64,000 nucleotides of DNA from a virus (IMGVR_UViG_3300033146_000244:20569-84568), one strand, 5' to 3'; numbered from the stretch's first letter, positions 4,505-64,000 are shown. Numbers and translations: made by a program. The notes: generated by a model from the letters alone, not told the origin.

Positions 4505-7288
4505 CTAACCACAACTACTATCTCCGCATGTATCACATATAGAGCAACCACCTTCGTATCTTATAGTACCACCGCATATAAGACAGTCTCCTTTTACGGT
4601 ATCATCTGCTATATAGTTGCTTAATACTCTCTTTACAGCTGTTGCAAATACACCTATAGGCAATTCTACCTTATCTATATCTCTTACTGCTTGTAGTACT
4701 GTTCCACCCATTCTAAACACTCTGCTAAGTAGCCTAGTCAGTACCTCCTCTTCACCATTCATATAGTGAGATGCTAAGTCTTCTAGCACCACGTAGTCAG
4801 TCTTTAAATCATATACCGTCTTTGTATCTTTACTTACATGTTTTACTATTTCTCCTTTGTTTACTAATAAATGAGTCTTTACATCTTTGAATGCAAATAT
4901 TTCATACACCTTATCTTTATGTAAACCAATTACTATCGTCCACAAGTTACTATTAATCCGCACACTATGTACATCGCAATTAAGTGTTTCTGGTCGTGCA
5001 GTCTCTACATTTACACTGGGGAGCGTAGCGTGTTTATGAACAACACCCATTCTGCAACCATCTCTGTACACAGTAAGTCCTTTCAAATTTGCTTTGTGTG
5101 CAGCTTTGTATATCTTTCCTATAGTCTTCTCTGTAGTATCATTCGGTAAGTTTATTGTACTGCTTATAGCACTATTTATATAACGCTGCATTGTCTTTTG
5201 TACTGCTATTCTATCTTGCCAGAGTATATCATGTGCTGTCTGTTTATACCAAGAGGATGACTTTATAATCTCTCCTATGTTTGTTATACCATTACCCAGT
5301 CCAGTAGCATTCAACCAGTCTACAAATGGTGGGTGCATTGTAGGCAGTGTCTGCCATTTATCCCCTACCTCATCTATGAAGTCATATTCTGCATCATCAA
5401 GTACCTTCACATTTCTAAAACCTTGTACACTATATAATGGTTCTGCTGCATTGCTTACACCTAATATAATACTACCAGTACCTACTGGTGCTATTGTACT
5501 TGTTTGTATGTTTCTTAATGCTTTCTCCGTAGATACATTGTTATCTATTCTGTAGTCCTTACTAAACATACTCTCTCCTCTTGTATTAGCTAAAGCATAG
5601 TTAGTCCTCTCTTCTGTTTTAGCCTTTATATCCATTATACTACTTATATAGCTCATATCACTGTACTTTAATCCTAAAGCAGCTTGTGTATCAGCTAGTC
5701 CTGTAATACCTATTCCAACTCTTCTCGTTTTTATTAGCTTTCTGCGTATATTAGTCCACAAATCAACTTCGTCCCTATCTATAGGTAGTAGTTTATTAAG
5801 TATTCTATCTATATGTTCTATCTCTACGTCCACAAGGGTATCAGCTATCTTATGATATATTTCACAGTCCTTTGTATATTCTACCGTGTCAAACTCAGCG
5901 TTTCTTGTAAATTTGTCTATCACGTAAGCATACAAGTTATGGTGCATCAATCCACAAGACTCATCTGGTGGTAAGGGTTGTTCTCCGCATTGCCCAGTTA
6001 CTATACCGTTAAAAGTGCCTTTATGTTTTAAAGGTTCTGTAAAACAAAATGTATCTTCATTGTCTACTTCTATTACAGTTATTTTTTTTACAACTGTCTG
6101 TATCACCTTATCAAGATTATCTAGGTAGTAAGGTTCTATAGTATCTCCTACCACTATATCTTTTGCTTGTACTTTTATATTACCAGCTAGATACCAGTTA
6201 TGTGCAGGGGTGCATTCTAACGAATAGCTGCGTGTAGGTACCGTTACTGATGGTGCTACATCTTCTGTGTCTATGCGTAACCACTTATTTGTTTTTCCAG
6301 TCCTCTCTATTTTAACAGTAGCCCATTGACTACCATTCCAAACGTCATGCCAGTTACCTACTTCATTTTCTATAAATAGGTCACCTACATGTGTAGTTAT
6401 ACGTGTATTACCTCTTACGCATGGATTAGTACTCACCTCCTCATACTCCTTACCGTATTTACCAGTACCGCCTCTAAGTATTGTATCCCAGAATAGTACA
6501 CCTGGTTCTGCACTTAACCAGTTATTGTGCACCAGCTTGTCCCATAGTTCTACAGCACGTATTACTTTAATATACATACCGTCTATTAAGCATAGTCCTT
6601 CTGTATACTTAGCTTCCCAACCTGCTGGTAATTTAGCATCTATAGGGAATGTTTGCACATACTGTGAGTCTGTTTCTACCGCTTCCATGAAATCATCACT
6701 CACTTTTACTGATATATTTGCTCCAGTAATCTTAGTTGTGTCCTTTTTAGCATCTATGAAGTCTCCTGCATCAGGATGCCTAACGTCTATACTCAACATC
6801 AACGCACCTCGTCTGCCGTCTTGTGCGACTCTGCGTGTGTCTTCACTATACTGTTCCATGAATGGTACTATGCCTGTAGATGTATTAGCTGCATTATTAA
6901 CTACAGCTCCTTTTGGTCTAATGTGCGATAAGTCGTGTCCTACACCACCTCTACGCTTCATAAGATTTACAGCATCTAAAGCTGTTCTGTATATACCATT
7001 ATAAGAGTCTGGTGTATTACCTATTACAAAGCAGTTACGTGTACTTACTAGCTTATCAGTACCAACACTTGCCATATAGCTACCACCTAGTATGAATTTA
7101 CCTTCATTAAATAGTCGTAGTATTGTTATCTTGTCTATACCGTCTGTGTAATTTTTCTCTTTATCCTTTTTTACAATAGCGTTTGCTATCCTTTCAAATG
7201 AGTCTTGTATTGTGACTTCTGCTCCTTGTAACCATTTCTGATTAAAGATGCTTCTACCAAACTCGTTATTTTTAAAGTATTCTCCCAT
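4505..7288 (-). CDS. nrdJ: Class II (adenosylcobalamin-dependent) ribonucleotide reductase with an intein
   Basis: NCFV, RRGGVG, QDGRRGALM, EPGVLF, STNP[intein]CGEQPL, RRVGIGITG, TIAPVGT, SSTINLP, KGLTVYRDG; C-terminal TSCPD-like domain and zinc ribbon; no beta-subunit gene nearby. Confidence 0.95.
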   Translation of the reverse strand: MGEYFKNNEFGRSIFNQKWLQGAEVTIQDSFERIANAIVKKDKEKNYTDGIDKITILRLFNEGKFILGGSYMASVGTDKLVSTRNCFVIGNTPDSYNGIYRTALDAVNLMKRRGGVGHDLSHIRPKGAVVNNAANTSTGIVPFMEQYSEDTRRVAQDGRRGALMLSIDVRHPDAGDFIDAKKDTTKITGANISVKVSDDFMEAVETDSQYVQTFPIDAKLPAGWEAKYTEGLCLIDGMYIKVIRAVELWDKLVHNNWLSAEPGVLFWDTILRGGTGKYGKEYEEVSTNPCVRGNTRITTHVGDLFIENEVGNWHDVWNGSQWATVKIERTGKTNKWLRIDTEDVAPSVTVPTRSYSLECTPAHNWYLAGNIKVQAKDIVVGDTIEPYYLDNLDKVIQTVVKKITVIEVDNEDTFCFTEPLKHKGTFNGIVTGQCGEQPLPPDESCGLMHHNLYAYVIDKFTRNAEFDTVEYTKDCEIYHKIADTLVDVEIEHIDRILNKLLPIDRDEVDLWTNIRRKLIKTRRVGIGITGLADTQAALGLKYSDMSYISSIMDIKAKTEERTNYALANTRGESMFSKDYRIDNNVSTEKALRNIQTSTIAPVGTGSIILGVSNAAEPLYSVQGFRNVKVLDDAEYDFIDEVGDKWQTLPTMHPPFVDWLNATGLGNGITNIGEIIKSSSWYKQTAHDILWQDRIAVQKTMQRYINSAISSTINLPNDTTEKTIGKIYKAAHKANLKGLTVYRDGCRMGVVHKHATLPSVNVETARPETLNCDVHSVRINSNLWTIVIGLHKDKVYEIFAFKDVKTHLLVNKGEIVKHVSKDTKTVYDLKTDYVVLEDLASHYMNGEEEVLTRLLSRVFRMGGTVLQAVRDIDKVELPIGVFATAVKRVLSNYIADDTVKGDCLICGGTIRYEGGCSICDTCGDSSCG
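5990..6421 (-). mobile_element. 144-aa mini-intein in the RNR active-site NP/C motif
   Basis: Starts CVRGNT, has block B CTPAH and block F TFCFTEP, ends GIVTGQ followed by extein Cys. Removing it restores NPCGEQPL. Confidence 0.92.
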
Positions 7289-7350
7289 GTATATATGTTT
7301 TTAGTGTAACGGTAGTAGCTAGTTTTATCTAGCTACTATATATATCAATA

Positions 7351-7653
7351 CTATTTAGTTAGTAAGTCTTTCTCGTTTTCTACTATACCTGGAATATGTA
7401 ATTGGTCTACTATAAGGCACTCTATACCGTTTATACTGATAGGCGGTGCTATAGCTACCATATGCCATACCAAAGCACCAACTACAATACCTGATTCAGT
7501 TACCTTGTTTCCTACTGCTAGTACCTTGCTAGTACGCATACTACTACTATCTGAAACAGTACTAAGTATAATACCTGACTTAGATGTTGTCGTCTTACTA
7601 GCTTCTAGTACTACATTACTACCCGTTGGAATGAAATTTAATTTTTTTGACAT
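7351..7653 (-). CDS. groES: GroES/Cpn10-like co-chaperonin
   Basis: FIPTGSNVVLE...TSKSGIIL...KVLAVG pattern, 100 aa. Confidence 0.8.
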   Translation of the reverse strand: MSKKLNFIPTGSNVVLEASKTTTSKSGIILSTVSDSSSMRTSKVLAVGNKVTESGIVVGALVWHMVAIAPPISINGIECLIVDQLHIPGIVENEKDLLTK

Positions 7654-9948: not shown

Positions 9949-10780
9949 ATATTGTAATTATAAATTCATTTAATAATGCGTAATACTTTAATTTATTTTT
10001 GTGGTCTCCTATCTTAATTGCCTCAGTAAACCAGTTATATAAGTCCCACACTGTTGCAAAACCTTCCTCATCTATAGGAAATAGGTTATCATCACTGTCT
10101 CTATACTTTATAGCCGCTATTACTACCCCCTGTGGTAATACTTCTAACATATTACCAAAGAAAGCATTTTGTATGTATCGTGGCAGTTCAATACCCCTCA
10201 TGTCTTCTATAAACGCATCTAATTTAGTATCATCTGATGCTATGAATGTTTTTATTTCTTCAAGCATTGTATGCAAAGAGTTTTCTATATCGCCTGTATG
10301 CCTCTTCTTTATATCTACGTCACTGTTAATTATCATACCGTTACTACATATAGACATATTGTAGCCAAGTCCTATACGCAATGCAATACTTTTGTTTGTA
10401 CTGTTTAGTACATATATAGTTTTACAGTATTCTTTATCCTCTTCTTTATTCATTCTTATCTCTGCAAACATAGTTGTAACTAGTCGCATCATTTGTATCG
10501 TTGGTAGGTTATAACCACTTTCTAAGTAAGTAACTATATCTTTCTCTACTTTACGCATATAGGGTGTTGAACGATTATTCTTAGACAGCCCTATTGTTAC
10601 GATGACTTCCTTAACGGTAGATATGTTATCTTCATTAGCTTTCATCATTACTGTATTTAGTACATCATATAAAGGAAGCGGTTTCCATGTATTAGTTCGG
10701 TTTGGTGTAGATATTAGTTCTAATATGGTTGCTACTCTTACGTCTATTTCATAGTCTGTCATTAAATTTAATGTTATCAT
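9890..10780 (-). CDS. DUF932-family protein
   Basis: NSTNKS...GLG...ICSNGM...KRHTG and TVWDLYNWFTE motifs. Confidence 0.75.
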   Translation of the reverse strand: MITLNLMTDYEIDVRVATILELISTPNRTNTWKPLPLYDVLNTVMMKANEDNISTVKEVIVTIGLSKNNRSTPYMRKVEKDIVTYLESGYNLPTIQMMRLVTTMFAEIRMNKEEDKEYCKTIYVLNSTNKSIALRIGLGYNMSICSNGMIINSDVDIKKRHTGDIENSLHTMLEEIKTFIASDDTKLDAFIEDMRGIELPRYIQNAFFGNMLEVLPQGVVIAAIKYRDSDDNLFPIDEEGFATVWDLYNWFTEAIKIGDHKNKLKYYALLNEFIITIYGEKQILFNKGGTKKLITK

Positions 10781-11708
10781 CTAGTAGTTGTTTTAGTTTA
10801 TTTGTGTTGTTATAATGTTTTACCATGTCACTGGCATCAGTAACTTTGGTTATATCAGGTAGCACTATGTTTACAAAATTAGGGTACTTTCTAAGTATCT
10901 CTTTTGCGTATAGCTGTCCTCTATTCATTCTTTTTTCCCAGTCATTGTCATACAGTATATAGATATTAGGGAATATATCTATTAACTTATTTAGTAGCGG
11001 TTGTTCCAGATACAAGCCTTCGGCTTGTGTTCCAATTACGTTTGGGTATCCAGCTTTCTTTATAACTATAACATCTTTTACACTTTTCGTTATAATTAAG
11101 TAACCTAATTTTCTATCTAGCTTATTTAAGTTATGTATTATTTTACCACTAACACCTCTCATGTTGTTTAACCATTTGTACTTCTTATTTAGTGGTTGGT
11201 ATATCTTCTTATACACTTTATTTTTATAGTACCACGTATAGCATATTACTATATTATTACCTGCGTAGATAGTTTTATCACCTACTTTAAAAGACATTAA
11301 TGAAGATATATTACCTTCATCTGCAAGGTCTTGTTTTGTTATAGTGTAATCATTCCAGTATTGTAGTGTCGCTTTTGGGTGTTTCCTGTACGCAGTTGTT
11401 TCTATAGGGTTGTATGCAGCCCCCTGTGTATAATGTAATCGTTGCTGCGTTTTTGCATCTGCTATGCCACCCTCTACTTCACTTCTGATTTTATCCATCG
11501 CTTCTCCATACGATATATTATTTAACTTCATTACTAAGTCTATACCATCTCCTGTGTCACCAGTAGCCAAGTCTTTATATTTAACCTTACCGCTTCTTGT
11601 GCTGAATACTGCGAAGGACTCCACTTTATCATCTCTGAATGGTGACTGTATTGTTATTGGTATTTTCCTAATACCTAAGTAGTGTTGTAATATTTGCCTA
11701 CTGTCCAT
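10749..11708 (-). CDS. DNA primase (crAss-type, TOPRIM)
   Basis: SPFRDD...F...YKDLATG N-terminus, IITKSVKDV, YDND, DASD. Likely start MDSRQ at 11708. Confidence 0.88.
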   Translation of the reverse strand: MDSRQILQHYLGIRKIPITIQSPFRDDKVESFAVFSTRSGKVKYKDLATGDTGDGIDLVMKLNNISYGEAMDKIRSEVEGGIADAKTQQRLHYTQGAAYNPIETTAYRKHPKATLQYWNDYTITKQDLADEGNISSLMSFKVGDKTIYAGNNIVICYTWYYKNKVYKKIYQPLNKKYKWLNNMRGVSGKIIHNLNKLDRKLGYLIITKSVKDVIVIKKAGYPNVIGTQAEGLYLEQPLLNKLIDIFPNIYILYDNDWEKRMNRGQLYAKEILRKYPNFVNIVLPDITKVTDASDMVKHYNNTNKLKQLLDDNIKFNDRL

Positions 11709-11715
11709 ATACAAG

Positions 11716-11748
11716 AATACCCAACAGCTACTAGAGCCATTGGGCATT
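11716..11748 (-). terminator. Stem-loop after SSB (terminator/attenuator-like)
   Basis: Minus strand AATGCCCAATGGCT-ctagt-AGCTGTTGGGTATT, 14 bp with G-U pairs; weak U tail. Confidence 0.55.
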
Positions 11749-14756: not shown

Positions 14757-15370
14757 TCGTGTGTACCTCCTCCCACTGTAGAGTTATCTTTTTCAAAGTT
14801 CATACCCTCTAACTCTTGTAGTAATCTACTATTTATTAGTAATTCCTTTGTTACTTTATCCTCTCGTGTATTGTTAATAAAGTTTTCCGCCTTCAGTAAG
14901 TACTTATACCCACTACTTCTCTGTGAGTCTATATAATTTTTAGTGGCATCTAGTATCTGCTTATCTGTATAGTCGTGTTTGGATAGGAAGTACGATAACC
15001 TGCTACTACAAGCAGTCTTACTTCCCATTCTTGACCTGAAAGCATCTTTAAATAACTTACGGTACTCTGTAAGTAGGTAAACTCCGCAACTATTAGATAA
15101 AGGCGACATCACATTTACACTGGGGGTAGTGCTTTTAACAATATTGTTACCCTCACCAAAAGCATCTATCGTCTTATTAGTAAATACTAACGGCACTATT
15201 GGGACTATGTAGCCCTTATCAGTTAGTGTACTAACTAACTTCGTACTGTCGTAACCGTTATACCCACTTATTAACTCATCTGCATACTTTATCTTACCTA
15301 TATACAAATAGTATAAACATAAACTCTCCTTGTTTGTAAGGTCTTTTCTTTTTATCTCTTCATGTATCAT
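14747..15370 (-). CDS. Putative replication-initiator/helicase-loader-like protein
   Basis: Immediately upstream of the helicase; ILDATKNYI...YKYLLKAENFI motif of crAss Rep-like proteins. Confidence 0.55.
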   Translation of the reverse strand: MIHEEIKRKDLTNKESLCLYYLYIGKIKYADELISGYNGYDSTKLVSTLTDKGYIVPIVPLVFTNKTIDAFGEGNNIVKSTTPSVNVMSPLSNSCGVYLLTEYRKLFKDAFRSRMGSKTACSSRLSYFLSKHDYTDKQILDATKNYIDSQRSSGYKYLLKAENFINNTREDKVTKELLINSRLLQELEGMNFEKDNSTVGGGTHEWV

Positions 15371-20112: not shown

Positions 20113-22281
20113 CTAATGTCCCCATGTATCTTGTATTACGGGTTCTGCTTTCATAGGCACTATCTCACAGAATAAAGCACCCGCATCTTCCATAGCACTT
20201 TTTACATCTAATGCCAACCATTCAGCATCTTCCTCCTTACATGAACTTAATATCTCATCATGTATCTCTGCTAAAAGTTTTACGTCTGTATGTAGTGGTG
20301 TGTAACCTTTCGCTATCAATCTCTTCCTCAATAACAATATAGCTATCTTAGTCATATCACCAGCAGTACCTTGTGTTGGTGTATTCATTGACAACCTCTT
20401 ATAGCTGCTATATAATCTTATTAACGCATACAAAGTTTTTTTATTTCCTTTCCAATACTTTGTATTTAATTGCTTATTCTCTAGTAAGCTCTTTAGTAAT
20501 CTTGCCATCTTCTCTCTACCTATACTCTCTATTACTTTCTTATAGTATTCTAAAAACTTGTCGTAGTTTGGTAGCATTCTCTTTCTATGCGTTACCTCAT
20601 TTATCAGTATATACCCCTGCTTAATACTATCTTTCGCTACCTGCGAAAAATAAGCAACCTTCTCAGGAAACACTGCCAGCACACCGTTATATAACTCAGT
20701 AGCCTTCTCTTCCGTTATACTAAAAGATGTAGCTATTGTCTTAATACTCCCACCGTAATCTAGCTTGAAGTTCACTGTTTTAGATAAGTCCCTCTTGTCC
20801 TTATCAAATTCTACACTATAACTAGGTGTCTTCTTACTGATATTTTGAGGTACTCCTTCCAGTATTTCAAATAAGATGTTAGCTACAAAGGAATGCAAGT
20901 CACCGTCACCATTAAGGTAAAAGTCTATTAACTTACTATCCTTACACTTATTAGCTGTAACTACTGATTCTTGACCACTGTAATCACAGTTTATCATTTT
21001 ATAACCCTTTGCAACCCTAAAACAGCTTCTTACTTCCTCGTCATGTGGTATATTCTGTATATTGGGCTTACTACTACTTGTCCTACCAGTAGTGAGTATC
21101 TGCCAATATGAAGCATGCACTCTACCGTTTACAACGAACTTGTTTACAAACTTCACCCCATAAGTAGATATAGCTTTTTTATACTCTCTGTATTTAAGTA
21201 ATATACTAAATATCTCATGTACTGGTATATTCTGAGTTAGTATTGCTTTACTTGTCCCAATCTTTTTCTTACCGTAGTCTTTTAAGTCGGCTCCGTTTAT
21301 CCTACTTAACAACTCTATAAGTTGCTTAGGTGAGTTCCAGTTAGTAGTTGTGTTACCGAACAACCCATATTTGTCAGTACTTACTATCTTTTCTTTTATA
21401 GCAATATCATCTAATTTCTGTCTAGTTTTTAGTATCTTTGTTTTAAAGACACTTCCCAGCTTTAACCAACTTTCTACTACAATAGGCATACCGTTATATT
21501 CCATATCACCTAACCCAAATGATACTTCTGCTTCCATCGTAGGTAAGTCATAATCACAGTCGTCTAGTTTAAATGTATTTCTATAACCATTCTCTCTAAG
21601 TAACCGTTCTTGTTTAACTAGTATCCTACTAGGTGCAACAATGTCCTGTACCGCATATACTATGTGTCTTACAGTAAAAGGTTTTTGACCAATAGTTAAA
21701 AATAACATCGTAGTATCCTTATCCAATGACTCATCAAAGTATCTGTAATAGCTACCTGCCATTGTGAAGTATCCAAATGTAGTTAGCTCAGTAAAGTCGG
21801 TTTTACCCTTATCTCCTGTAGTACCTGCATCTATTATCATATCATTAATACTGGTATCCTCTAATATGTTTAGTACTATACCGTACTGTTTTAACATATT
21901 ATAGTCGTATTTTAAGTTAGTGCCACTCCATCTAATACTTTCTAGCTCCTTTTTTAATAATCTAATATCGTAGTGTCTTGTATCTATTACTACCTGATGT
22001 TCCAGATTTCCAAATTGTAGCATAATCACCTTATCCTTTCTAGGGTCTAAACCAGTAGTCTCTGTATCCAATATTGGTTTTGTGTTGTTTAAAGTAGTTG
22101 GAACTGCGGACAAAGAGTTTACACTATACACTGGGGTACTCATGTAACCTCCTATGAGCTCCTTAGCTTTTCTGGTTATACTTTTCTTATCTAGTGTTAT
22201 AAGCGTAGTGTCTATACCTAATGTATTAACTGCTATATCAGCTACGTTATAGAGGGATTCTCCCCCGTAATAATATATCAT
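20113..22281 (-). CDS. polA: Family A DNA polymerase with 3'-5' exonuclease
   Basis: LDTETTG, NLKYD, YAVQD, TGRTSSSKPNIQNIP, DYSGQE, RxxxKxxNFxxxYG, NTPTQGTAGD, IHDE. Confidence 0.95.
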   Translation of the reverse strand: MIYYYGGESLYNVADIAVNTLGIDTTLITLDKKSITRKAKELIGGYMSTPVYSVNSLSAVPTTLNNTKPILDTETTGLDPRKDKVIMLQFGNLEHQVVIDTRHYDIRLLKKELESIRWSGTNLKYDYNMLKQYGIVLNILEDTSINDMIIDAGTTGDKGKTDFTELTTFGYFTMAGSYYRYFDESLDKDTTMLFLTIGQKPFTVRHIVYAVQDIVAPSRILVKQERLLRENGYRNTFKLDDCDYDLPTMEAEVSFGLGDMEYNGMPIVVESWLKLGSVFKTKILKTRQKLDDIAIKEKIVSTDKYGLFGNTTTNWNSPKQLIELLSRINGADLKDYGKKKIGTSKAILTQNIPVHEIFSILLKYREYKKAISTYGVKFVNKFVVNGRVHASYWQILTTGRTSSSKPNIQNIPHDEEVRSCFRVAKGYKMINCDYSGQESVVTANKCKDSKLIDFYLNGDGDLHSFVANILFEILEGVPQNISKKTPSYSVEFDKDKRDLSKTVNFKLDYGGSIKTIATSFSITEEKATELYNGVLAVFPEKVAYFSQVAKDSIKQGYILINEVTHRKRMLPNYDKFLEYYKKVIESIGREKMARLLKSLLENKQLNTKYWKGNKKTLYALIRLYSSYKRLSMNTPTQGTAGDMTKIAILLLRKRLIAKGYTPLHTDVKLLAEIHDEILSSCKEEDAEWLALDVKSAMEDAGALFCEIVPMKAEPVIQDTWGH

Positions 22282-22514: not shown

Positions 22515-22543
22515 TTTATACTATTTAATTAATTTGTATCATG

Positions 22544-22663: not shown

Positions 22664-22680
22664 ACTTCTCGTCTATTTTA

Positions 22681-23579: not shown

Positions 23580-23711
23580 CTTGTGTATCTAATTCTGTTA
23601 CTGTCACCAACATAATACTCGGTAATTTTTTAATACCGTCTATTATATAATAAATTGTAATAGCACCGGTGGCTAGTGCTATTATAGATACTGCTTGTTT
23701 AAGGTATTTCA

Positions 23712-25828: not shown

Positions 25829-25830
25829 TA

Positions 25831-30074: not shown

Positions 30075-30318
30075 CCATTATTAGTATTTAGCGCCATATC
30101 TACATGTTATTGTAGGGTTAGGTCATATCTATAAGATACGTAACATATCACTATGCTATCTGCTTGACACATGTTTAGGTTGTTGTCTTACTTACCTTGT
30201 CAATGGTAACAACCTATTTATAGTTTCCTATAAATCTTTATACTTGCCGTAAAGGATTCATCAGCCTTACTTACTATTCTTTAATATTCTATTACTACCG
30301 TTACACGGTAGCCCCTGT
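30075..30318 (-). ncRNA. Candidate large structured RNA (GNRA hairpins, tetraloop-receptor-like motif, pseudoknot)
   Basis: tttatag-GAAA-ctataaa; tagcata-GTGA-tatgtta; taggttgtt/aacaaccta stem whose loop TTGACA matches downstream TGTCAA; CCTAA...TATGG helix. Confidence 0.55.
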
Positions 30319-30323
30319 GTAAA

Positions 30324-30683: not shown

Positions 30684-30957
30684 GTTGTTTTTTTTTATTC
30701 GTCTGCTATTAGTATTTTATAAAGAATCGTATAGTATGTTAGTGCGATTACGTATAGTAGTATTGTATTATTATAATTGTTAGTCCTATCATAGAACTTA
30801 ATACTGTATGCACTACCTACTGGTACTATTATTAGATATTTTATGTCTGTTTGTTGCTATGTTGTTAAACTACCAGTGCAATGTAGTAGGTGCAAAACGC
30901 AGCAAATGATTTACATTTACACTGGGGGATTAGTTGAACTTAAATATGGTTAGTCAC

Positions 30958-33699: not shown

Positions 33700-33709
33700 G
33701 GACATAATT

Positions 33710-35351: not shown

Positions 35352-36523
35352 AATATATAATTATTAAAAGTTTATACTCCGCTTAATACACATTCAGTTT
35401 TACGATGCTATGTAAATTGTATATGTATTTGCATTCCCTATCAGATTTAATAGGGGGGTAGTGTAATGCAATATTCCGAAAAGGTCGCAAGCTAAGGGTA
35501 GGTAACCCACACATCTCCTCTCAACAAACAATCCAAACCCAACTACTTAATAAAAAATTTTTTAAAAAAATTCTAAACCCCTAACACACCAACCTTAGTA
35601 ACAACCACTCCTAAACAACTATATTTCCCTAAACCTTCATAACTAATCTACCAACCACTTTATCACCAATTACCAAACAACATTACACTACCCTATAAAA
35701 ACTCTAAGCACAACTACCCTGCACTTAATAAATTCAAACAGCCTTACACTACGACACTACATTTTTACTCAATGTTATAGTGTAGTTGTTTTTAATTGCT
35801 TATTACCACCGCCTATTATAGAAAAAACACAACACCACATCTGTTACAATACTCTTGTTACCACACGCTTTAAACATGTTTATACCTTATATTTTTATAT
35901 AACGTACCTTCCTTAACGTATTTTTTATACTTACTTATTTAAGCAGACATTACCAATTATGAAGATAGCTGTACTACATCATTATTTTAATACAGTCACT
36001 ATATAACGATTGTAACTAACTACTACTTCTAATACACATACTGTATCATCAAGTTTATTCACTTTTACACTTTTAAGAGGTACACCTAATACAATTACAC
36101 AAATAATATGTTAAAAATTGTTAAAGATTGTTAAAATACTCTGATATATTTGGAAATGTTAAAAATAAACGGTAACTTTGCTAAAATAAACAACTAAAGA
36201 AAATATTAATATAAATACGGAGTAAATAACTAATACTACTACACTACGATATTAATAATTACATACTTAAATAAAACTTACTTAATATATAACACTATTA
36301 TAATAAGTAATACTTAGATAATACTTAAATAGAATACTAGTTTATATATAACAGTATTATAATAAATAGTACTTATATAAAGTATTAGTTTATATATTAA
36401 GGTAGATATTTTTAACTACCTATTATGTATCTTCGTATATAACACACGTGTTATAATTACTAGCTACTTTAACGTATATCTGTAATTAACGTGTACGTCA
36501 AGTAATAATTAATAACACATTCA
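35352..36523. other. Divergent non-coding control region (candidate genome end and/or origin)
   Basis: 1.17 kb without ORFs at the strand switch; C/A-skewed 35505-35760; very AT-rich repeats 36100-36420. Confidence 0.6.
36149..36180 (+). promoter_or_regulatory. Bacteroidota primary-sigma promoter for the late block
   Basis: TTTG (36149-52), 20-nt spacer, TAACTTTG (36173-80); overlapped and preceded by four TGTTAAA repeats. Confidence 0.8.
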
Positions 36524-38276: not shown

Positions 38277-40481
38277 ATGACTACTCGCATGACAAAGCTA
38301 AGTAAGCTCTATAGAATAGACAGTAGTATAATAGAGGATGTATATAAGCTAGCTAAGAAACATGACATACATATATACGATGCTTACACTGCATACCTAC
38401 GGTACGACGCCCCCAGTGTAATAGATAAGCACTGTGCCGATTTTTCCTTTAATCAGAAGATAGTTAGTTGGTACAAGAGTGATAGATACTTAGTTAATAC
38501 AGAGAAGTACAGAGAAGCAGCAGAAACATTCCGAACTACTGGTAGTTACACGAACTTAAAACCAAATAAGCACCCTAATAGTGAGTACATGAAGTTCTGG
38601 GTAGAAGAGGCTCGTAGGAGTATATATGGGTTTCATATAGGTAATGACTGGATATCTGGTTATTACTATTTTTATTTGAATTATTCTCCTATAGATTTGG
38701 CGGTAGTATTGGACGATACATCTAGTAACGGTGCTATAAGGGGAGACCGTATAACTGACTTTGCTTCTATGTGGGACGGTGATTACTACTACTTTCACTA
38801 TTTAGAAGAATGTGAACGTACTGGTAAACAAGCAGCAGTACTTAAGGCACGTGGTAGAGGATTTAGTTGGAAACACGCTTCTATGCTAGATAGAAACTTC
38901 TTCTTGATACCTAAGAGTAAGTCAATGGTGTATGCTAGTAGTAAAGAATACTTGACTGGTAATGACGGTATATTAACTAAGGCTTGGTCTATAATGAGCC
39001 ACTTAGATTTGAATACGGCTTGGGCTAAGAGAAGACAGGTTAAGAACACGCAGGACAGTAAGAGAGCATCGTTAGAACGGGTGAAAAACGGCGTAAAGAC
39101 TGAAACTGGGTTCATGTCAGAAATATCTGGAATTACACTGGGGGATAGTGTGCATAAGCTAAGAGGAAAGCGTAGTAAACTGATAATATTTGAAGAGTCT
39201 GGTAGTTTTAAGGACTTGGAGACTGCGTGGATAGTTTCAGACCCAAGTGTTAAGCAAGGTAATATAGTGTTTGGTCTTAAGGTGGCATTTGGTACAGGAG
39301 GTGAAGAGGGTAGTCAGTTTGAAGGGTTGAAGAACTTATTTTATAAACCAGACGCTTTTAACGTGTTGTCTTTACCTAATGTATGGTCAGGTAATGCAGA
39401 ACATAACAAGGTGGGGTGGTTTGCTCCTTCCTACATTAACTTGGAAGGGCACTATGATAAAGATGGTAATAGTAATATAGAGGTTGGTAAGAAAGCAATA
39501 GAACAAGAAAGAGAAGATGCGTTAGTAAGTGGTGTAGCACCTAGTACATTCCAGAAGATGAAAGCAGAGAACCCCTTAGTGCCTGAAGATGCTATATTGA
39601 GGAGTACGCTGAGCCCTTTTCCGGTACAGATGCTATCAGAACATTTGGTCTTGCTGGAGACAGATACTGCTTATAGAGGTAAGGTTAGTAAGGGTACTTT
39701 ATCCTTGACTATGGAAAATGAGGTTGTATGGCAAGAGGACTTGTTGAATAAAGTACATGTCATAGGCACTGATGATGTAAATAGCTTGAACGTAGATGGT
39801 GGTATAGAAGTTTATCAGCACCCACCAAGTATGAAGGTTTCAAGAAATACGTTTATTATAGGGGTAGACCCGATAGACTTTGATAGGAATGAAGTTGGTA
39901 AGAACTTCTCTTTAGGTAGTATGTTTGTTATGAATACACTTACTGAGCAGATAGTAGCTGAGTATACTGGAAGACCTGCTAATGCTAATGATTTTTATGA
40001 GAACGTGAGGAGGTTATCTATGTATTATAATGCTAAGGTGATGTATGAGAATAACTTGAAAGGGTTGTATGTATATTTTACTAACAAGTTTAGTGAGCAC
40101 ATGTTATCTTTAAAGCCTACTATACTGCAGGATACTAATGAGCAAATGAAGGTAGGTAATAGGAAGTATGGATTCACTGCTGCTGGTAATCAATCTTCAA
40201 GCATACTTAAGTATGGGAGACAACTTATAAAGGAGTGGTTAGAAAAGAGACTATCAGGCACAGACGATACTAGGTTACTATATACTATTAGAAGTGCTGG
40301 TCTGGTGCGAGAGTTGATAGATTGGCACGCAGACGGTAACTATGATAGGGTAAGTGCGTTGATAGCTGTTATGATACATCTTGCTGATACTGATAGGACT
40401 AGGACTAGAAATGGTAGTAAATCTACTGAGGTAGATGTAGAGGCTCGTAATTTCTATAATAGGCCTTTTCTTGGGTGGTAG
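38277..40481 (+). CDS. terL: Terminase large subunit
   Basis: HYFY-type ISGYYYFYLNY, LKARGRGFSW, LRGKR...FEESG, FGTGG, IGVDP, YENN, NYDRVSA. Confidence 0.93.
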   Translation: MTTRMTKLSKLYRIDSSIIEDVYKLAKKHDIHIYDAYTAYLRYDAPSVIDKHCADFSFNQKIVSWYKSDRYLVNTEKYREAAETFRTTGSYTNLKPNKHPNSEYMKFWVEEARRSIYGFHIGNDWISGYYYFYLNYSPIDLAVVLDDTSSNGAIRGDRITDFASMWDGDYYYFHYLEECERTGKQAAVLKARGRGFSWKHASMLDRNFFLIPKSKSMVYASSKEYLTGNDGILTKAWSIMSHLDLNTAWAKRRQVKNTQDSKRASLERVKNGVKTETGFMSEISGITLGDSVHKLRGKRSKLIIFEESGSFKDLETAWIVSDPSVKQGNIVFGLKVAFGTGGEEGSQFEGLKNLFYKPDAFNVLSLPNVWSGNAEHNKVGWFAPSYINLEGHYDKDGNSNIEVGKKAIEQEREDALVSGVAPSTFQKMKAENPLVPEDAILRSTLSPFPVQMLSEHLVLLETDTAYRGKVSKGTLSLTMENEVVWQEDLLNKVHVIGTDDVNSLNVDGGIEVYQHPPSMKVSRNTFIIGVDPIDFDRNEVGKNFSLGSMFVMNTLTEQIVAEYTGRPANANDFYENVRRLSMYYNAKVMYENNLKGLYVYFTNKFSEHMLSLKPTILQDTNEQMKVGNRKYGFTAAGNQSSSILKYGRQLIKEWLEKRLSGTDDTRLLYTIRSAGLVRELIDWHADGNYDRVSALIAVMIHLADTDRTRTRNGSKSTEVDVEARNFYNRPFLGW

Positions 40482-51942: not shown

Positions 51943-51954
51943 CAGGTATAACAA

Positions 51955-52620: not shown

Positions 52621-53556
52621 ATGAGTAAGAGTATAAATATAGAACTGATACAGGACAAGTACACAAATTTTGTCCTGTATGACGGTTCTGATAGGTGTGA
52701 TAGCACAGTAGAGTGGGTAGAACCTAAAGATGTTACAGGCATTAGTGTTATATTTACTAGTGAATCAGATGCACTAGAAATAGACAGACATGTAGTTATT
52801 GATGACACACAGAGAGCTATAGTTCAAGGTACTGTAGATTTTTTAGGATTTGACTTTAGTGCATACTTAGCACATAGGAATATAGTAATTGAGCAGAACG
52901 GTGTGGTGTATGAGGTAGTTGTTACAGAGGATACAGCTAGCGCTAGTGATTTAGCTTCGTTGTTGCAGGCAGGTTTGGGAACTTCAATGGTAGTTACGGT
53001 TGAAGGAGATAAAATAAATATAAGGAGTACTTATTCCCCCAGTGTATATGGTGATAGAGCCCCCGATATTGAAGTACTAGGAGGCACACTACTTGAAATG
53101 ATTGGTATAGAAGTAGGTGTTTATCGTAGTAACTTCATTAATTGGGGTAGTACATTGCTAACAGCAGATGACTTGAGGTTTACTATCTATAAAGAGGACT
53201 TAAACTTCCCAGAGGGTATTCCGATAGGTAAGTGGGTAGTACAGACGATAGTATCGTATAATGATGGTACAACTTCAGTAGTAGTAGATGACTATGAAGA
53301 GTTCACTTACAAACAGATTGAACTTTACAGAGCTTCATATTTAGAAAATATTGCTAAGAAATTCAATGATTTTGACTTAATAGAACAACGTATGCAGACT
53401 TTAGATGAGTTAAGTATGAAATCCTTTATGACTTTTGATAGTGTCTATAAAGCAATGTTATCTGTAATTGAAGTGGGGAATAGTTTGCAAGTATCAAAAT
53501 TATTAGTATATTTGCAGAGCTATATAAAACTAAACAACATTACAAACGGTGAATAG
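52621..53556 (+). CDS. Putative tail hub protein
   Basis: Beta-rich N-terminus and helical C-terminus; position ahead of a small hub-like ORF and fibres. Confidence 0.5.
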   Translation: MSKSINIELIQDKYTNFVLYDGSDRCDSTVEWVEPKDVTGISVIFTSESDALEIDRHVVIDDTQRAIVQGTVDFLGFDFSAYLAHRNIVIEQNGVVYEVVVTEDTASASDLASLLQAGLGTSMVVTVEGDKINIRSTYSPSVYGDRAPDIEVLGGTLLEMIGIEVGVYRSNFINWGSTLLTADDLRFTIYKEDLNFPEGIPIGKWVVQTIVSYNDGTTSVVVDDYEEFTYKQIELYRASYLENIAKKFNDFDLIEQRMQTLDELSMKSFMTFDSVYKAMLSVIEVGNSLQVSKLLVYLQSYIKLNNITNGE

Positions 53557-53824
53557 GAGTTTATGGTCTTTAAATTACCTTAAAAGTAATCTAGCTTATG
53601 ACTATGGTGTGTATATAGAGAGCTATATAGATAAGATGACTATTGGTATTATTGACGTTAAACAGAGGACACTGATATATTTACTTCAATCATATGCGGA
53701 GTTAATTAACTTGTGGGATATAGATAATCCGTCATATAACTTGTTAGACTCAGCTGGTATGGTAAGTATATTAAGTGCGGTAAATAGAATATTAAATACA
53801 AATTACGACTATGAGTTTATTTAA
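53549..53824 (+). CDS. Small putative tail hub protein
   Basis: 91-aa helical ORF; synteny. Confidence 0.45.
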   Translation: MNRSLWSLNYLKSNLAYDYGVYIESYIDKMTIGIIDVKQRTLIYLLQSYAELINLWDIDNPSYNLLDSAGMVSILSAVNRILNTNYDYEFI

Positions 53825-55250
53825 AGTAAGACCGTTCAACCGTGATATATCTAGTAAGAAGTTAAATAAGGAGTTAAACTTTCAGTTTGATAGAGGGTGG
53901 TCTCCAGTATTAGTTCCTTATATAGATGGTACTAGGGTTGTACTAAGAATAAGTGAGTGGGTAGGTGGAGAAGGTGAACCACCATTCGCTATACTAACTA
54001 ACTACTACTTGTCGCTTACTGGGTACACAACTATAGCCAGTGAGGCAGTAGATATAGCAGAAGGGTATCTAAGCAGTTCGTACAAAGATGATATAATAGA
54101 TGCGACTACAGTTACTACTGAGCTGCTGGAAGATGAAGGAGATGGGATAAGATACTTCCGTATGTCGTATGATGACTTAGAAGGTAACAGTACTACCCTA
54201 ACAGATGTAGCTCTACTGCAAACAAAAACAGGTGTGGAAACGGGGGTTAGTCTTGATGACACATTAGGAATTACACTGGGGGGAGTAAAGTATCTTGTGG
54301 GTGAAAAAGCTAAGTGGCTAGTTATAGAGGACTGGATGTTAGCTGAAAGAGCAATAGACAGAGCAGCATCTCAAAACAGTGTGTACCTAGCGATAGAAGC
54401 AGCAAAGGCTAAGTTTGATGTACCTATAATAGACTTAGATAGTGGTATCATAAGGGATGTAGAACACATGAACGATGTAACACAACTGAACCCTTATTAT
54501 GCTATGGTAGGTAGTGATGATAGAATAGGTGGTATATACACTCCTGTATGTACAGAGGGTGCGGCATGTAGCTGTTCTGCCGATGGTGGTTATTCAGAGA
54601 TGGGAGATACAAGGGGTATTACTGGTTGTGTTTGTACTCTTGGAGTAGAGGAAGTAAATGCAGTATGTAGAGTAACTGTTACAACAGTTGGTAATATAGG
54701 TGATACTTATACAGCTTCTGTAGATGGTGTTCCTACGATGTGGTACACAGTAGTAGCAGGTGATACTATTACAGATGTTTTACAGGGTATGATTAACAGT
54801 TTACCGTCAGTATGTGGTGGTGGTAGTCCGATATGCACAGTAGGTAATATAACTGCTAATAGTTTTGATTTGACGGCTGTAGGAGGATTAGGTAGTGAGC
54901 CTAATGCTTGGGTGAAGACTTTTATTGTTACAGGCACATCGGCAGGTTCGTTCACAACAGTTACGGCAGGTGTAGATTTTATACCTACTACATACAGAGG
55001 TGTTAAAGGGCACTTGATAGCTTATGATGGTAACTCATGGTACGACTTTGGTGGTGCTTTAACTGGTGTAAGTAGAACATCCACCACTGTTATAAATAAT
55101 ACTGTTGTTAATACAGGTATAAAACATTATATAGAAGTACTGGATGATGTAGTAGTTGATAACTACTACCAGTATATAGTATATGAAAGTCTCACGGTAG
55201 ATGGTGTGTTTACACTTGATGGTGATGCAGAGTTAGTAATAATAATGTAA
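53811..55250 (+). CDS. Tail fibre-like protein
   Basis: GWSPVL...W.GGEG.PP motif; Cys/Gly/Thr-rich mid-region; Q..VY..LT.DG..TLDG C-terminus. Confidence 0.6.
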   Translation: MSLFKVRPFNRDISSKKLNKELNFQFDRGWSPVLVPYIDGTRVVLRISEWVGGEGEPPFAILTNYYLSLTGYTTIASEAVDIAEGYLSSSYKDDIIDATTVTTELLEDEGDGIRYFRMSYDDLEGNSTTLTDVALLQTKTGVETGVSLDDTLGITLGGVKYLVGEKAKWLVIEDWMLAERAIDRAASQNSVYLAIEAAKAKFDVPIIDLDSGIIRDVEHMNDVTQLNPYYAMVGSDDRIGGIYTPVCTEGAACSCSADGGYSEMGDTRGITGCVCTLGVEEVNAVCRVTVTTVGNIGDTYTASVDGVPTMWYTVVAGDTITDVLQGMINSLPSVCGGGSPICTVGNITANSFDLTAVGGLGSEPNAWVKTFIVTGTSAGSFTTVTAGVDFIPTTYRGVKGHLIAYDGNSWYDFGGALTGVSRTSTTVINNTVVNTGIKHYIEVLDDVVVDNYYQYIVYESLTVDGVFTLDGDAELVIIM

Positions 55251-61626: not shown

Positions 61627-62918
61627 TGAGTATGTATAGAGATAGATATAGTAGAAGAAGATATGGAGCAGGTGGTGCTATAGGAGGTTCTATAGGGGCG
61701 CTTGCTGGTTCATTCATACCAATACCAGGAGTAGGTACTGCAATAGGTGGAGCACTGGGCAAAGCAGCTGGCAATGCAATAGAAAAACAATTCTTTAGTA
61801 ACCCTCAGAACAATGCAGAGGTAGTAACAAATAGTAATATAAACAGCCGAGAAAATCAAAGCCTTGATATAAATCCTTATGGGAACAGCTTTGGTGGAGG
61901 AGGCAACTTAAACCGCAACAACATGACATTAGCACAGTATTATGAGAGTATAAACCAGCGTATGCCTAGTTTAGAAAACAGAAGAATAGAGATGACTAGA
62001 CTTGGCTTAGACGGTAGTACAGCTGGAACACCAGAAGGTAATCAAAAATTATTACAGGCACTACAAACAGCAAATGACCCAACACAAACATACGGAGATG
62101 TAGGTAGTGGTGGATACGTACCAGGACAACAAGGTAACTCAACTATCCTACCGAATGCAGAAGGTACTAATTATAGTAGTACAAGTGAACGTACAGCAGG
62201 ACAAACAGCACCAGAGTTTGATAACACTAGACACGCCAATACACTGAGTGATGCTAATCAGCAGTACATGGATGACGAAGCTAACTGGAGTTATGGACAT
62301 CACCGTACAGGAGGTAATAGTTCTCCTGGAGACGGGGCGTATAACGCAGAGCCTTATAAACAGTTAGAAGGTAACCAACCAGAACCTGTGACAGAGGAAA
62401 AAGCAGACCCAACTAAATGGGTTAGTAAACTTATGTTGATGCCAAATGGTAGAGAAAAATCTGTAATGTTCCAACCAAGCACAGGTGATATACAAGTCAA
62501 AAGAGCTGGGCAAGGTAGTAGGAAGTTATCTAGGAATAACGTATGGTACGGAAAAGACAGTGATGCACAAGGTAGTAAACTTACCAATGAAGAAGTTAAT
62601 GATAAGTTTAATAGGAGTACTACCTATGATGAAAAAGTAAATAAAGACGGTACACGTATGCGTAGATACAAAGGAACTGGTGATAATTACGAATATTATG
62701 TTAAAGATGATGATAAGAAAAAATGGGAAAATGTCAATAGTATAAGAAGTACTAGTAGATATGCAGGTTTATTTGGTGGTACTACAACTGATGCAAGTGT
62801 ATTGAGAGATAGTTATGCTAACTTTACTGGTTCAAGTGCTACTGGTGAAATGTCTAGCCACAGTACTACTGGTAATAGAACAACCAGTAGGCATACCAAC
62901 GCAAATACACAAAGATAG
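61626..62918 (+). CDS. Virion cargo (ejected) protein, Gly-rich hydrophobic N-terminus
   Basis: GGAIGGSIGALAGSFIPIPGVGTAIGGALG glycine zipper; follows the muzzle gene. Confidence 0.65.
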   Translation: MSMYRDRYSRRRYGAGGAIGGSIGALAGSFIPIPGVGTAIGGALGKAAGNAIEKQFFSNPQNNAEVVTNSNINSRENQSLDINPYGNSFGGGGNLNRNNMTLAQYYESINQRMPSLENRRIEMTRLGLDGSTAGTPEGNQKLLQALQTANDPTQTYGDVGSGGYVPGQQGNSTILPNAEGTNYSSTSERTAGQTAPEFDNTRHANTLSDANQQYMDDEANWSYGHHRTGGNSSPGDGAYNAEPYKQLEGNQPEPVTEEKADPTKWVSKLMLMPNGREKSVMFQPSTGDIQVKRAGQGSRKLSRNNVWYGKDSDAQGSKLTNEEVNDKFNRSTTYDEKVNKDGTRMRRYKGTGDNYEYYVKDDDKKKWENVNSIRSTSRYAGLFGGTTTDASVLRDSYANFTGSSATGEMSSHSTTGNRTTSRHTNANTQR

Positions 62919-64000
62919 TGCAAGGACAACCTATAAATAATGTTACTGAATACAAAGGTGCAACACACGAACAGGGTGGTGTGCCTTTGGGTAACACAGG
63001 AAATGAAGTAGAAGGAGGAGAAACTAGATACAAGGACTTTGTATTTAGTGATAGAATTTTAGTACCTGAGACTAGGAAGACTTTCGCAGAAGAGTCTAAG
63101 AGGATAAAGAACAAGTATAAAGACAGACCTAATGATGTGATAGCACAAAAGAGCTTAGAGCAGGAGCTTAATAGGTTATCTCAATCACAGGAGGAGTTGA
63201 AACAAATGATTGCACCCCCACAAGCACCTGATGGAGTTCCACGTAGTGGAGGTGGAGAAGGAATGGGATTAGGACAACAGATGCAAGGTGGTCAAGGAAT
63301 GCAAGGAGAGATGGGAGTACAACAAGGTGGTCAGGTAGCCCCCAGTGTAATGGATAATCAGGTAGAACAAGGTGCGCCGATGCAAGTACCACAAGAGCAG
63401 CAGTTAGGGCAACCAATGGCATTTGGTGGTACAGTTAGAAAGTTAGGTGGCGGTGGTGATGTTAATGGTGATGGTGAGGTATTTGGAGGTGATGGTGACC
63501 CTAAATGGTGGAATACTCGTAAAAATAAAAAGGAAAAGATAGCTGCTATACTTGAAAGTACAACAGAAGTAGTACATTCATCGGTGTATAATAGACGAGG
63601 TGAGAGGTTATTTCAAGCACATGGGTCTGGTGGTGGTGCTAGTACCTACTACCTAAAAGAAGATAAGGCCGGTAATGTTGTAAACAGTAATAAAGTACAG
63701 TACCTTCTCGCCGATAGTGATAAAGAGGGTAAAACTGGCTACTACTCAGCTAAAGCTAGAGAGGCTAGGATAAACAAAGCAAATAGTGGTAATAATAATA
63801 CCGGTATAGAAGACCCAGATAAGCAAAGTAACGGCATATTTGGTAAGTTAATAGGTGAGAGCATACGTAATTTCGCTAATAAGCACACTAATAAAGGTAA
63901 TGGTGGTGGTGAGGATGCACGCAGTATTGAAGAGGGAGTATCAAGTAGTGGTAATAATAACAGTATCACGCAAGATGCAGACATAGTAAGTACACCTGAA
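62918..64000 (+). CDS. Virion cargo protein, 3' truncated, not in ORF track
   Basis: GTG at 62918 overlaps the previous TAG; the frame is open for 361 codons to the window end; contains GATHEQGGV...EVEGGE...VFSDR, a crAss cargo-protein motif. Confidence 0.75.
   Translation, partial: MQGQPINNVTEYKGATHEQGGVPLGNTGNEVEGGETRYKDFVFSDRILVPETRKTFAEESKRIKNKYKDRPNDVIAQKSLEQELNRLSQSQEELKQMIAPPQAPDGVPRSGGGEGMGLGQQMQGGQGMQGEMGVQQGGQVAPSVMDNQVEQGAPMQVPQEQQLGQPMAFGGTVRKLGGGGDVNGDGEVFGGDGDPKWWNTRKNKKEKIAAILESTTEVVHSSVYNRRGERLFQAHGSGGGASTYYLKEDKAGNVVNSNKVQYLLADSDKEGKTGYYSAKAREARINKANSGNNNTGIEDPDKQSNGIFGKLIGESIRNFANKHTNKGNGGGEDARSIEEGVSSSGNNNSITQDADIVSTPE

Follow-up and report, generated by a model that had tools for sequence, protein, structure and literature searches.

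Here, we propose that the short word TACACWGGGG, dispersed over both strands of a crassvirus genome, marks polar, strand-specific nick or primer-start sites that would be read by a lineage-specific phage protein, a reading to which we give a probability of about 0.35. The proposal builds on a firmer result, namely that the word is a real, strongly selected and lineage-specific signal at the level of DNA. The stretch analysed, called the window throughout, comprises 64,000 nucleotides (bases 20569-84568) of the 84,568-bp IMG/VR virus record IMGVR_UViG_3300033146_000244, which is linear and ~85% complete. Window coordinates equal genome coordinates minus 20568 and are the ones used below unless genome coordinates are named.

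Searching the window for TACACWGGGG returns 11 exact copies where dinucleotide shuffles predict 0.12, and none of 100 shuffles reaches 11. Genome-wide, there are 14 copies, seven on each strand, against ~0.2 expected and none for the reversed-pattern control. Their genome coordinates are 6818-, 7809+, 18527-, 25580+, 31989-, 35684+, 42695+, 50880-, 51486+, 58979-, 59702+, 73605-, 74840+ and 83908-, the first three lying upstream of the window. Among all words of the genome, TACACWGGGG and its extensions rank top by over-representation at each length k between 8 and 12. An earlier note on this stretch, made from the sequence alone, had suggested comparison with a codon-preserving null, and the word survives it: 12 coding copies are observed against ~0.15-0.33 expected under two codon-aware nulls, one permuting synonymous codons with the proteins kept and the other permuting codons within each gene. 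One-mismatch variants, by comparison, occur at chance level, both in the window (5 observed, 5.6 expected) and in the genome (6 observed, 4.1 expected). Thus the core is all-or-none, which fits an enzyme site, and the two "weaker copies" that the earlier note had listed as sites, 17464(-) and 42997(+), are best treated as noise. Its 11 exact copies, in contrast, were each recovered within 1 base of where they had been placed: nine of TACACTGGGG, at 5012, 15116, 22127, 30918, 39134 and 54272 on the plus strand and at 38411, 53037 and 63340 on the minus strand, and two of TACACAGGGG, at 11421 and 30312 on the minus strand. Their settings are as follows.

5012..5021, plus strand: copy of TACACTGGGG in the ribonucleotide reductase (RNR) large-subunit gene (4505-7288, minus strand); antisense, the gene reading L-P-S-V.
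11421..11430, minus strand: copy of TACACAGGGG in the DnaG-type primase gene (10749-11747, minus strand); sense, Y-T-Q-G; strong upstream box AACGCAGC at -21.
15116..15125, plus strand: copy in an open reading frame (ORF) of 207 amino acids (aa) (14747-15370, minus strand) that adjoins the DnaB-like helicase gene; antisense, T-P-S-V.
22127..22136, plus strand: copy in the PolA gene (20113-22281, minus strand); antisense, in a different frame (T-P-V-Y).
30312..30321, minus strand: intergenic copy of TACACAGGGG, 2 nt past the stop of a MazF-like ORF and, in sense orientation, 262 nt upstream of the gene for a 722-aa phrog_1735 protein; left member of a back-to-back pair.
30918..30927, plus strand: intergenic copy, right member of the pair flanking the 119-aa MazF-like ORF; strong box AACGCAGC at -22.
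38411..38420, minus strand: copy in the terminase large-subunit gene (38277-40481, plus strand); antisense, A-P-S-V, in a variable stretch of the protein where relatives carry DDDD or a gap.
39134..39143, plus strand: second copy in this terminase gene; sense, within the stretch for the conserved peptide G[IV]TLGD, which is encoded here with rare CTG and GGG codons.
53037..53046, minus strand: copy in a 311-aa ORF of the structural block (52621-53556, plus strand); antisense, S-P-S-V; left member of a pair.
54272..54281, plus strand: copy in a 479-aa ORF of the structural block (53811-55250, plus strand); sense, I-T-L-G; right member of that pair.
63340..63349, minus strand: copy in the gene for crassvirus cargo protein 1 (62918-64000+), which runs past the end of the window; antisense, A-P-S-V.

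Among the gene names that had been attached to these sites, RNR, DnaG-type primase, PolA, terminase (two sites) and cargo protein 1 stand, while "scaffold", "hub", "fibre" and "two IHF-like proteins" found no confirmation in Pfam or PHROGs.

The placement of the copies with respect to genes points to a constraint on DNA rather than on protein. Twelve of the 14 are intragenic, eight of them antisense (seven in the P-S-V frame) and four sense; when all 14 are set against genes, five are co-oriented and nine antisense, and they spread over the replication, accessory and structural modules. The bias towards the P-S-V frame follows from the word itself, since the remaining frames give a stop codon or Cys, Trp or His. 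Each coding site uses rare codons (CCC, 8% of Pro; a preceding NCC, 3-7%; CTG, 7% of Leu; GGG, 11% of Gly). For the terminase peptide G[IV]TLGD, the studied phage has ATT ACA CTG GGG, whereas the closest relative compared, G006, has the common codons GTT ACT TTA GGA. Three other recurrent words of the genome, GTAGATGGT, AGACGGTA and TAGGTGATA, were considered as comparable signals and set aside as codon or peptide bias, since all are locked to the sense strand of genes; only TACACWGGGG among the recurrent words disregards gene orientation. The earlier contention that the constraint is on DNA is hence well supported, by the occurrence of both orientations with respect to genes, by the rare codons and by the common codons that G006 uses for the same residues. 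The signal has been written into genes through tolerant positions and rarer synonymous codons, and such gene-indifferent placement fits a DNA process and argues against promoters of mRNAs.

The copies are also ordered with respect to each other. Strands alternate at 12 of the 13 steps between the 14 exact sites (exact P = 0.004) and at 15 of 19 when all one-mismatch sites are added (P = 0.018), so that the alternating orientation described previously holds without hand selection. Copies on the same strand are kept apart, with minimum gaps of 7011 bp (plus) and 8099 bp (minus; P = 0.008 and 0.003, respectively, against seven random points). The gaps from a minus to the next plus copy (606, 723, 991, 1235, 3695 and 7053 bp) are shorter than those from a plus to the next minus copy (6409-13903 bp; exact Mann-Whitney P = 0.004), and the result is a series of back-to-back pairs, G-runs outward, that recur every 7-15 kb. 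The three tight outward pairs of the earlier note are real, and a fourth sits upstream of the window; their tightness by itself is not significant (P = 0.22). Taken together, alternation, same-strand exclusion and back-to-back pairing suggest that the orientation of the sites matters at genome scale, which points to a vectorial, strand-specific process on DNA.

The full site is longer than its core. A logo of the 14 sites aligned on the core shows conservation from -8 to +10, reading TTaNcaTT-TACACWGGGG-G. Further upstream, CGCA is found in the interval -32..-9 of seven of the 14 sites, against 0.35 expected at random positions, and an expectation-maximisation (EM) search recovers a GC-rich box with the consensus AWCGSSRS and best copies AACGCAGC, whose score of 133.5 exceeds the maximum of 109.5 from 25 null sets. 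In eight sites this box starts between -21 and -25, and in three others between -30 and -33, the two positions lying about one helical turn apart. The site is thus a composite, asymmetric element of ~35 bp: the AWCGSSRS box, a spacer of 13-16 bp (or one helical turn more) and TTaNcaTT-TACACWGGGG-G. Conservation is confined to these ~35 bp, with no longer repeat unit, and a search for a hairpin common to the sites found none.

A variant with the same core, TACACTAC, is concentrated in one place. Four of its 10 copies in the genome, against 0.14 expected, fall in a switch region laid out as follows.

35352..36523: non-coding switch region of 1.17 kb between the divergent leftward (replication/accessory) and rightward (structural) blocks.
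35456..35468, minus strand: left arm of a perfect 13-bp inverted repeat, reading CATTACACTACCC and sharing the core ATTACACT with the dispersed motif.
35681..35693, plus strand: right arm of the inverted repeat CATTACACTACCC, which is the first copy of an 18-nt direct repeat, CAAACAnCnTTACACTAC.
35745..35752, plus strand: third copy of TACACTAC, in the second copy of the 18-nt direct repeat.
36240..36247, plus strand: fourth copy of TACACTAC.

Three of these four copies extend the shared core to TTACACT. The layout is again back-to-back, with one minus copy on the left and three plus copies on the right, and the region also holds an A/T tract and AT-rich direct repeats. We consider it likely, from this arrangement of sequence, that the switch region is an origin or control region bound by the reader of TACACWGGGG. 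Established knowledge of iteron origins, their initiators and the RSF1010 ssi sites offers several parallels: in the origins used by lambda O and SPP1 G38P and in the P4 alpha ori/crr, as in the switch region, a core is repeated in a non-coding region by an A/T tract; ssiA and ssiB of plasmid RSF1010 are likewise inverted copies on opposite strands; and the lambda and SPP1 origins, like site 15116, lie inside a gene for a replisome organiser, here a possible one. Clustering of repeats in non-coding DNA close to an A/T-rich tract is seen with the TACACTAC variant only and not with the dispersed word; iterons occupy one or two loci, in contrast to 14 G-run copies over the whole genome. The AT-rich direct repeats (36279-36404; TATATATAACAsTATTATAATAA...), with periods of 48 and 59 bp and overlapping inverted repeats, are distinct from the TACACTAC copies and stand immediately ahead of the first rightward gene, which encodes an exonuclease (phrog_298).

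How widely is the signal shared? G006, found by an IMG/VR scan with alignment of the three closest terminases, is a 76,983-bp contig with direct terminal repeats and 61% terminase identity; the Logan contig P0002 is a 67%-identical relative. Structural and core replication genes are syntenic between G006 and the studied phage, and the two share every gene that holds one of the 12 intragenic sites, yet G006 contains zero exact copies of TACACWGGGG genome-wide, and neither the long non-coding region nor the TACACTAC cluster. Once its Gly-rich tandem repeat is collapsed, it has no dispersed word with a -log10P above 8, whereas the studied phage has one above 20. Nearly all of the enriched words of G006, examined as a possible dispersed signal, came from that one gene (51919-52764, minus strand), which consists largely of tandem Gly-rich repeats of hexapeptide type (TGGTTATGGT, TGGTGATGGT; G-Y-G, G-D-G). 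Further out, five IMG/VR terminase relatives of 38-39% identity have no exact copy, three whole genomes at that distance (G001, G003 and G005) have no word comparably enriched, and a scan of JGI metagenomes gave nothing above 44% identity. Judged by the sequences compared, the signal is lineage-specific.

What process might the sites serve? We envisage that a sequence-specific protein private to this phage lineage would read the ~35-bp asymmetric site on DNA, and that each copy would mark the nicking or priming of one strand, from which synthesis or strand processing would leave in one direction. Each back-to-back pair would then form a small bidirectional initiation point, one every 7-15 kb, and the TACACTAC cluster in the switch region, to which the same reader would bind, would serve as main origin or control region. 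More speculatively, the C-rich strand, 5'-CCCCCWGTGTA-3', could template a primer that starts with AC and ends in the G-run. Three elements of this scheme are inferences: a protein as the reader, a nick or primer start as the event, and replication or recombination as the process served. The phage-encoded PolA, DnaB-like helicase, DnaG-type primase, ATP-dependent ligase and a putative single-strand-binding (SSB)-like protein could act on such nicks or primers.

In support of this reading, the nick-associated motifs of the phages tf and Rembedalsseter, of phiKMV-like phages and of T5 are the closest documented phenomenon in copy number and invariance. They are short asymmetric words (TACTRTGMC in tf, WACTRTGAC in Rembedalsseter, CGACxxxxxCCTA/CTCCGG in phiKMV-like phages and R/GCGCRGG in T5) in ~5-14 copies, intragenic in the tf/Rembedalsseter group, whose word is common to ~60 related phages with little nucleotide similarity (PMC3517423, PMC11780129). 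TACACWGGGG resembles them in being a nearly invariant, short asymmetric word with several to ~14 copies far above chance, in lying, like the tf/Rembedalsseter words, inside coding sequence regardless of frame and, as a full site, in being bipartite like the phiKMV word.

A number of observations weigh against a nick or primer start. The documented nick systems use one strand only, whereas the copies of TACACWGGGG are divided 7+/7-, alternate and are paired, and the tf/Rembedalsseter word is shared by relatives, whereas TACACWGGGG is absent from G006, G001, G003 and G005. At ~12 kb apart per strand, the sites are too sparse for ordinary lagging-strand priming. The dispersed word and the switch-region cluster are tied by 6-9 nt of common core. 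Motif-less G006 has the primase, helicase and polymerase too, so the core replisome alone cannot explain the sites, and no nickase, HUH/HNH endonuclease or initiator was recognised in the ~70 ORFs scanned. The public runs that contain the sequence consist of low-depth assembled contigs. In addition, the word is lost at all nine alignable homologous positions in G006, eight of which lie in poorly conserved stretches of protein. Loss at homologous positions and elsewhere in relatives, which the earlier note had held would count against a signal, is therefore what we see; it shows lineage specificity, and not the absence of a signal or of selection in the studied phage. A test for the sawtooth in GC skew that outward forks would leave gave P = 0.6, a value that carries no weight either way because transcription dominates the skew.

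The reader was sought among the ~70 ORFs with Pfam and PHROGs, scans that stand apart from a 4711-aa giant protein encoded upstream of the window, and these revealed no nickase, HNH/HUH domain, sigma factor, T7-like RNA polymerase (RNAP), methyltransferase or IHF/HU protein; a sequence search of the PDB and of a protein atlas recognised no effector or initiator. Nor do IHF sites account for the word, as the logo does not fit WATCAANNNNTTR and the ORFs scanned contain no Bac_DNA_binding domain. Candidate DNA binders specific to this phage are a basic 86-aa protein with a double CxxC (19748-20008), the products of two very basic ORFs, 88 and 107 aa long (25562-26154), and, next to the switch region, a 283-aa protein with a weak AbrB/SpoVT motif (34500-35351). 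The 207-aa ORF around site 15116 has a weak likeness to phage proteins, including the Phg_2220_C cluster (replisome-organiser C-terminus), and is, like a 388-aa ORF (16460-17626), a further phage-specific candidate. The 722-aa phrog_1735 protein was also considered as the reader and rejected, its AlphaFold2 model matching only a TerD-like beta-sandwich.

These candidate binders bring up an alternative that we regard as unlikely but not negligible, that the copies form an array of high-affinity sites for an architectural or regulatory DNA-binding protein, which would organise, loop, silence or package the genome with no cutting or priming, the switch-region copies of TACACTAC acting as operators. 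The phage-specific basic or zinc-ribbon proteins and the AbrB-like protein beside the switch region would be its candidates, and their number (the 86-aa double-CxxC, 88- and 107-aa basic and 283-aa AbrB/SpoVT-like proteins) counts in its favour, as do the ~35-bp composite with two boxes on one helical face and the clustering of the same core in a control region between divergent operons. There is a precedent in the C1 repressor of P1, which has more than a dozen asymmetric operators dispersed over the genome. However, an architectural role predicts neither alternation nor same-strand exclusion nor back-to-back geometry, and binding sites are as a rule degenerate, unlike this invariant core, whose near-variants are at chance. 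Twelve of the 14 sites are intragenic and far from promoters, and the ORFs scanned contain no IHF/HU domain.

The G-run might also be a transcription start, and we consider it improbable that the sites are promoters for a phage-specific transcription system, using either an injected giant RNAP or a redirected host RNAP, that makes sense and antisense RNAs or RNA primers for replication. The 4711-aa giant protein is taken to be the virion RNAP on account of its size and of tblastn matches to proteins of relatives. The layout recalls the promoters of single-subunit RNAPs, with ~19 conserved bp ending in an initiating G-run; TACACT fits TAnAnT and the upstream box lies at a -35-like distance; site 30312(-) stands in sense 262 nt upstream of a gene; and the switch-region copies face the operons that they precede. 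T7-class promoters, with ~19 conserved bp, an initiating G-run and a dozen or more copies per genome, are nevertheless intergenic, co-oriented with genes and dependent on a T7-like RNAP, whereas 12 of these 14 copies are intragenic, nine of the 14 run against local genes, most of them deep in ORFs, and the ORFs scanned have neither a Pfam RNA_pol match nor a T7-like RNAP or sigma domain. Transcription leaving the pairs outwards would give convergent antisense RNA over most of the genome, and downstream of the sites there is no terminator, known RNA family or consistent structure. In the crassvirus phi14:2, moreover, no upstream motif is common to the transcripts of the virion RNAP, and host sigma70-like promoters serve the middle and late genes (bioRxiv 10.1101/2020.03.07.982082).

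Polar words can instead guide enzymes that move along DNA, and it is quite improbable, in our estimation, that TACACWGGGG is a signal of this Chi- or KOPS-like kind for a host or phage translocase or nuclease, with both orientations needed as ends or breaks are approached from either side. Equal numbers on the two strands, regular spacing per strand and alternation would be expected of an optimal two-direction signal, and many Chi and KOPS words are, like this one, G-rich at the 3' end. The known words have 5-8 nt, however, against an invariant 10-11-mer with flanks and a distal box spanning ~35 bp, and the signal is absent from G006, which presumably faces similar hosts. The related suggestion that the phage mimics a Chi or uptake signal of its host is not supported by the length of the composite, far beyond that of any Chi, or by database matches to the 15-mer CATTTACACTGGGGG: in IMG/VR, there are 20 single matches only, and in 185,579 GTDB species genomes at least 120 single chance matches, with no multi-copy genome among the matches listed, a comparison that concerns the 15-mer and not the bare 10-mer.

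Finally, the view that the word has no function, being left over from a small mobile element or a homing-endonuclease target, or else an artefact of composition or coding, may draw on the lineage specificity of the motif and on the inverted pair that flanks a small MazF-like cassette in the accessory arm, but it is very improbable and largely refuted, as the sites are conserved over ~35 bp only with no longer repeat unit, lie in uninterrupted essential genes whose flanks align with G006, use rare codons, remain enriched under codon-aware nulls and, unlike truly coding-driven words, are not strand-locked to the coding sense.

The genome around the sites is that of a crassvirus, with Pfam matches to the crassvirus major capsid protein, the muzzle protein, tail ring proteins 1-4 and cargo protein 1, and with a leftward block that encodes a dUTPase, a class II-like RNR, a DnaG-type primase, a DnaB-like helicase, an ATP-dependent DNA ligase, an AAA_24 ATPase and PolA. 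The RNR has its nearest homologues in Bacteroidales, Marinilabiliales and Flavobacteriia, which would fit a host among marine Bacteroidota; a search with the RNR returned only cellular class II RNRs at ~35% identity and is uninformative on conservation of its site. Three public DNA runs and no listed RNA run contain the sequence, the three being hydrothermal-vent metagenomes of one study, with Logan contigs of ~6x depth in which read ends are not visible. These show ~116 variable positions per 20 kb, which predicts ~0.3 in the 50 motif bases, and the zero listed there therefore carries no meaning.

Several other genes of the replication block deserve mention. Flanked by the primase and helicase genes, a 320-aa ORF (11766-12728, minus strand) matches nothing in Pfam or PHROGs, lacks a homologue in G006 and ends in an acidic tail (...EEYDEKEDDLPF) in which DDLPF resembles the conserved C-terminal tip of bacterial SSBs; it may be a phage single-strand-binding protein. 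The block also encodes a GroES-like co-chaperonin (7351-7653, minus strand; Cpn10, E = 4e-6) and a Kyanoviridae Gp96-like protein (15872-16162, minus strand; E = 1e-20). ARAGORN found zero tRNA or tmRNA genes in the whole window, 27377-27445 included.

Beside the switch region, an accessory arm of ~13 kb (~22278-35351) concentrates ORFs that have no homologue in G006, the exception being a 132-aa ORF (33781-34179) with a weak match there (E = 3e-6). Structural variants occur in this arm among the vent contigs: one X3 contig skips 27593-29282 (1688 bp, within the 722-aa gene) and several continue into unlike sequence, for example after 30986, which suggests strain-level turnover. The 722-aa protein (27882-30050, minus strand) belongs to phrog_1735 (E = 4e-174; precomputed Pfam PF26675), whose homologues are mostly on contigs of up to ~170 kb, with one of 318 kb. 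Its predicted structure (mean pLDDT, the per-residue model confidence, of 81) has a helical N-terminal half and a C-terminal beta-sandwich similar to the TerD family at a template-modelling (TM) score of ~0.5 to the target. The inverted motif pair brackets the neighbouring 119-aa ORF (30324-30683, minus strand), which weakly resembles PemK/MazF (E = 4e-4 in Pfam, short of the cut-off; E = 9e-4 to a MazF-like PHROG) and beside which no antitoxin could be recognised. Non-coding gaps of ~270 bp each lie on the two sides of this ORF (30051-30323 and 30684-30957); the downstream gap, as a 273-nt leader after site 30312, folds modestly (z = -2.05), whereas the upstream gap does not fold (z = -0.09), and around the pair neither an Rfam match nor a tRNA was found, and sigma70-like promoters and terminators are not in excess. 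A further phage-specific ORF of this arm (270 aa; 31831-32643, minus strand) has 12 Cys in two duplicated modules with paired CxxC (CKMCALVGGACDKC, CKLCDKAGDNCDTC) and no family match, and is probably a zinc-binding protein.

Is the signal confined to one phage? The earlier note knew of no such motif described for crAss-like phages, and our literature searches agree, having found no paper with TACACWGGGG or the word introduced next in a phage context, or with such a signal in crassviruses. In the genome of the distantly related gut phage cr110_1 (MT774386.1, Intestiviridae), the 12-mer CCCCGTAGAGGA occurs 22 times against 0.001 expected, and its core CTACGGGG 28 times (13+/15-), with the logo WTCCT-CTACGGGG-GGTCT. 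Like TACACWGGGG, this word is hyper-enriched and asymmetric, ends in a G-run, is about equally divided between the strands, is intragenic and often in inverted pairs, and belongs to an AT-rich crassvirus genome; on the C-rich strand, both have the form CCCCC...GTA(A/G)A, that is, CCCCC(AGT)GTA(A/G)A. If a primer is templated here as well, the cr110_1 word 5'-CCCCCCGTAGAG-3' might, speculatively, template ACGGGGGG. There are also differences, as the word itself is another, its copies are twice as many, its tight pairs (~150 bp) mostly face each other instead of standing back-to-back (six inverted pairs have spacings of 36-384 bp), and neither alternation (17/27, P = 0.16) nor same-strand exclusion is significant. 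A comparable word is absent from phi14:2 and DAC15 (both Steigviridae) and from cr4_1 (Suoliviridae), and a tblastn comparison of the studied phage with cr110_1 and seven motif-less crassviruses found, at the level of BLAST, no gene that tracks the signal. Thus a hyper-enriched, asymmetric, GC-rich word on both strands and inside crassvirus genes is found in the studied phage and in cr110_1.

In light of these comparisons, TACACWGGGG has the defining features of no family against which it was tested, and groups with the few dispersed G-run words found in some crassviruses, which are, as far as we have found, undescribed in the literature. It is possible, if somewhat doubtful, that some crassviruses, from the human gut to deep-sea vents, use an undescribed class of polar signal, in which each lineage would have its own dialect of a G-run word (TACACWGGGGG here, CTCTACGGGGGG in cr110_1), placed on both strands with controlled spacing and read by a fast-evolving protein. 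Signal and reader would then form a module subject to gain and loss, and would amount to a new strand-specific way of initiating or organising phage DNA, not to a variant of the one-strand nick systems; relatives at 61% terminase identity do differ in having the signal at all.

The Crassvirales are among the most abundant phages known and, to our knowledge, their replication origins, priming and genome organisation are essentially uncharted. A signal that overrides codon preference in the genes for terminase, DNA polymerase, primase and ribonucleotide reductase, and that obeys strict rules of strand and spacing, points to a dedicated mechanism for handling DNA. The problem is tractable, with a site defined to ~35 bp, reader candidates among ~30 phage-specific ORFs and a motif-less syntenic relative as a natural control, and the private words could act as lineage markers and as sequence-specific tools. 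Should nicking or priming at the sites on both strands be borne out, the puzzle of nicked phage genomes, now 50 years old, would gain a new geometry, and crassvirus replication a first functional handle.

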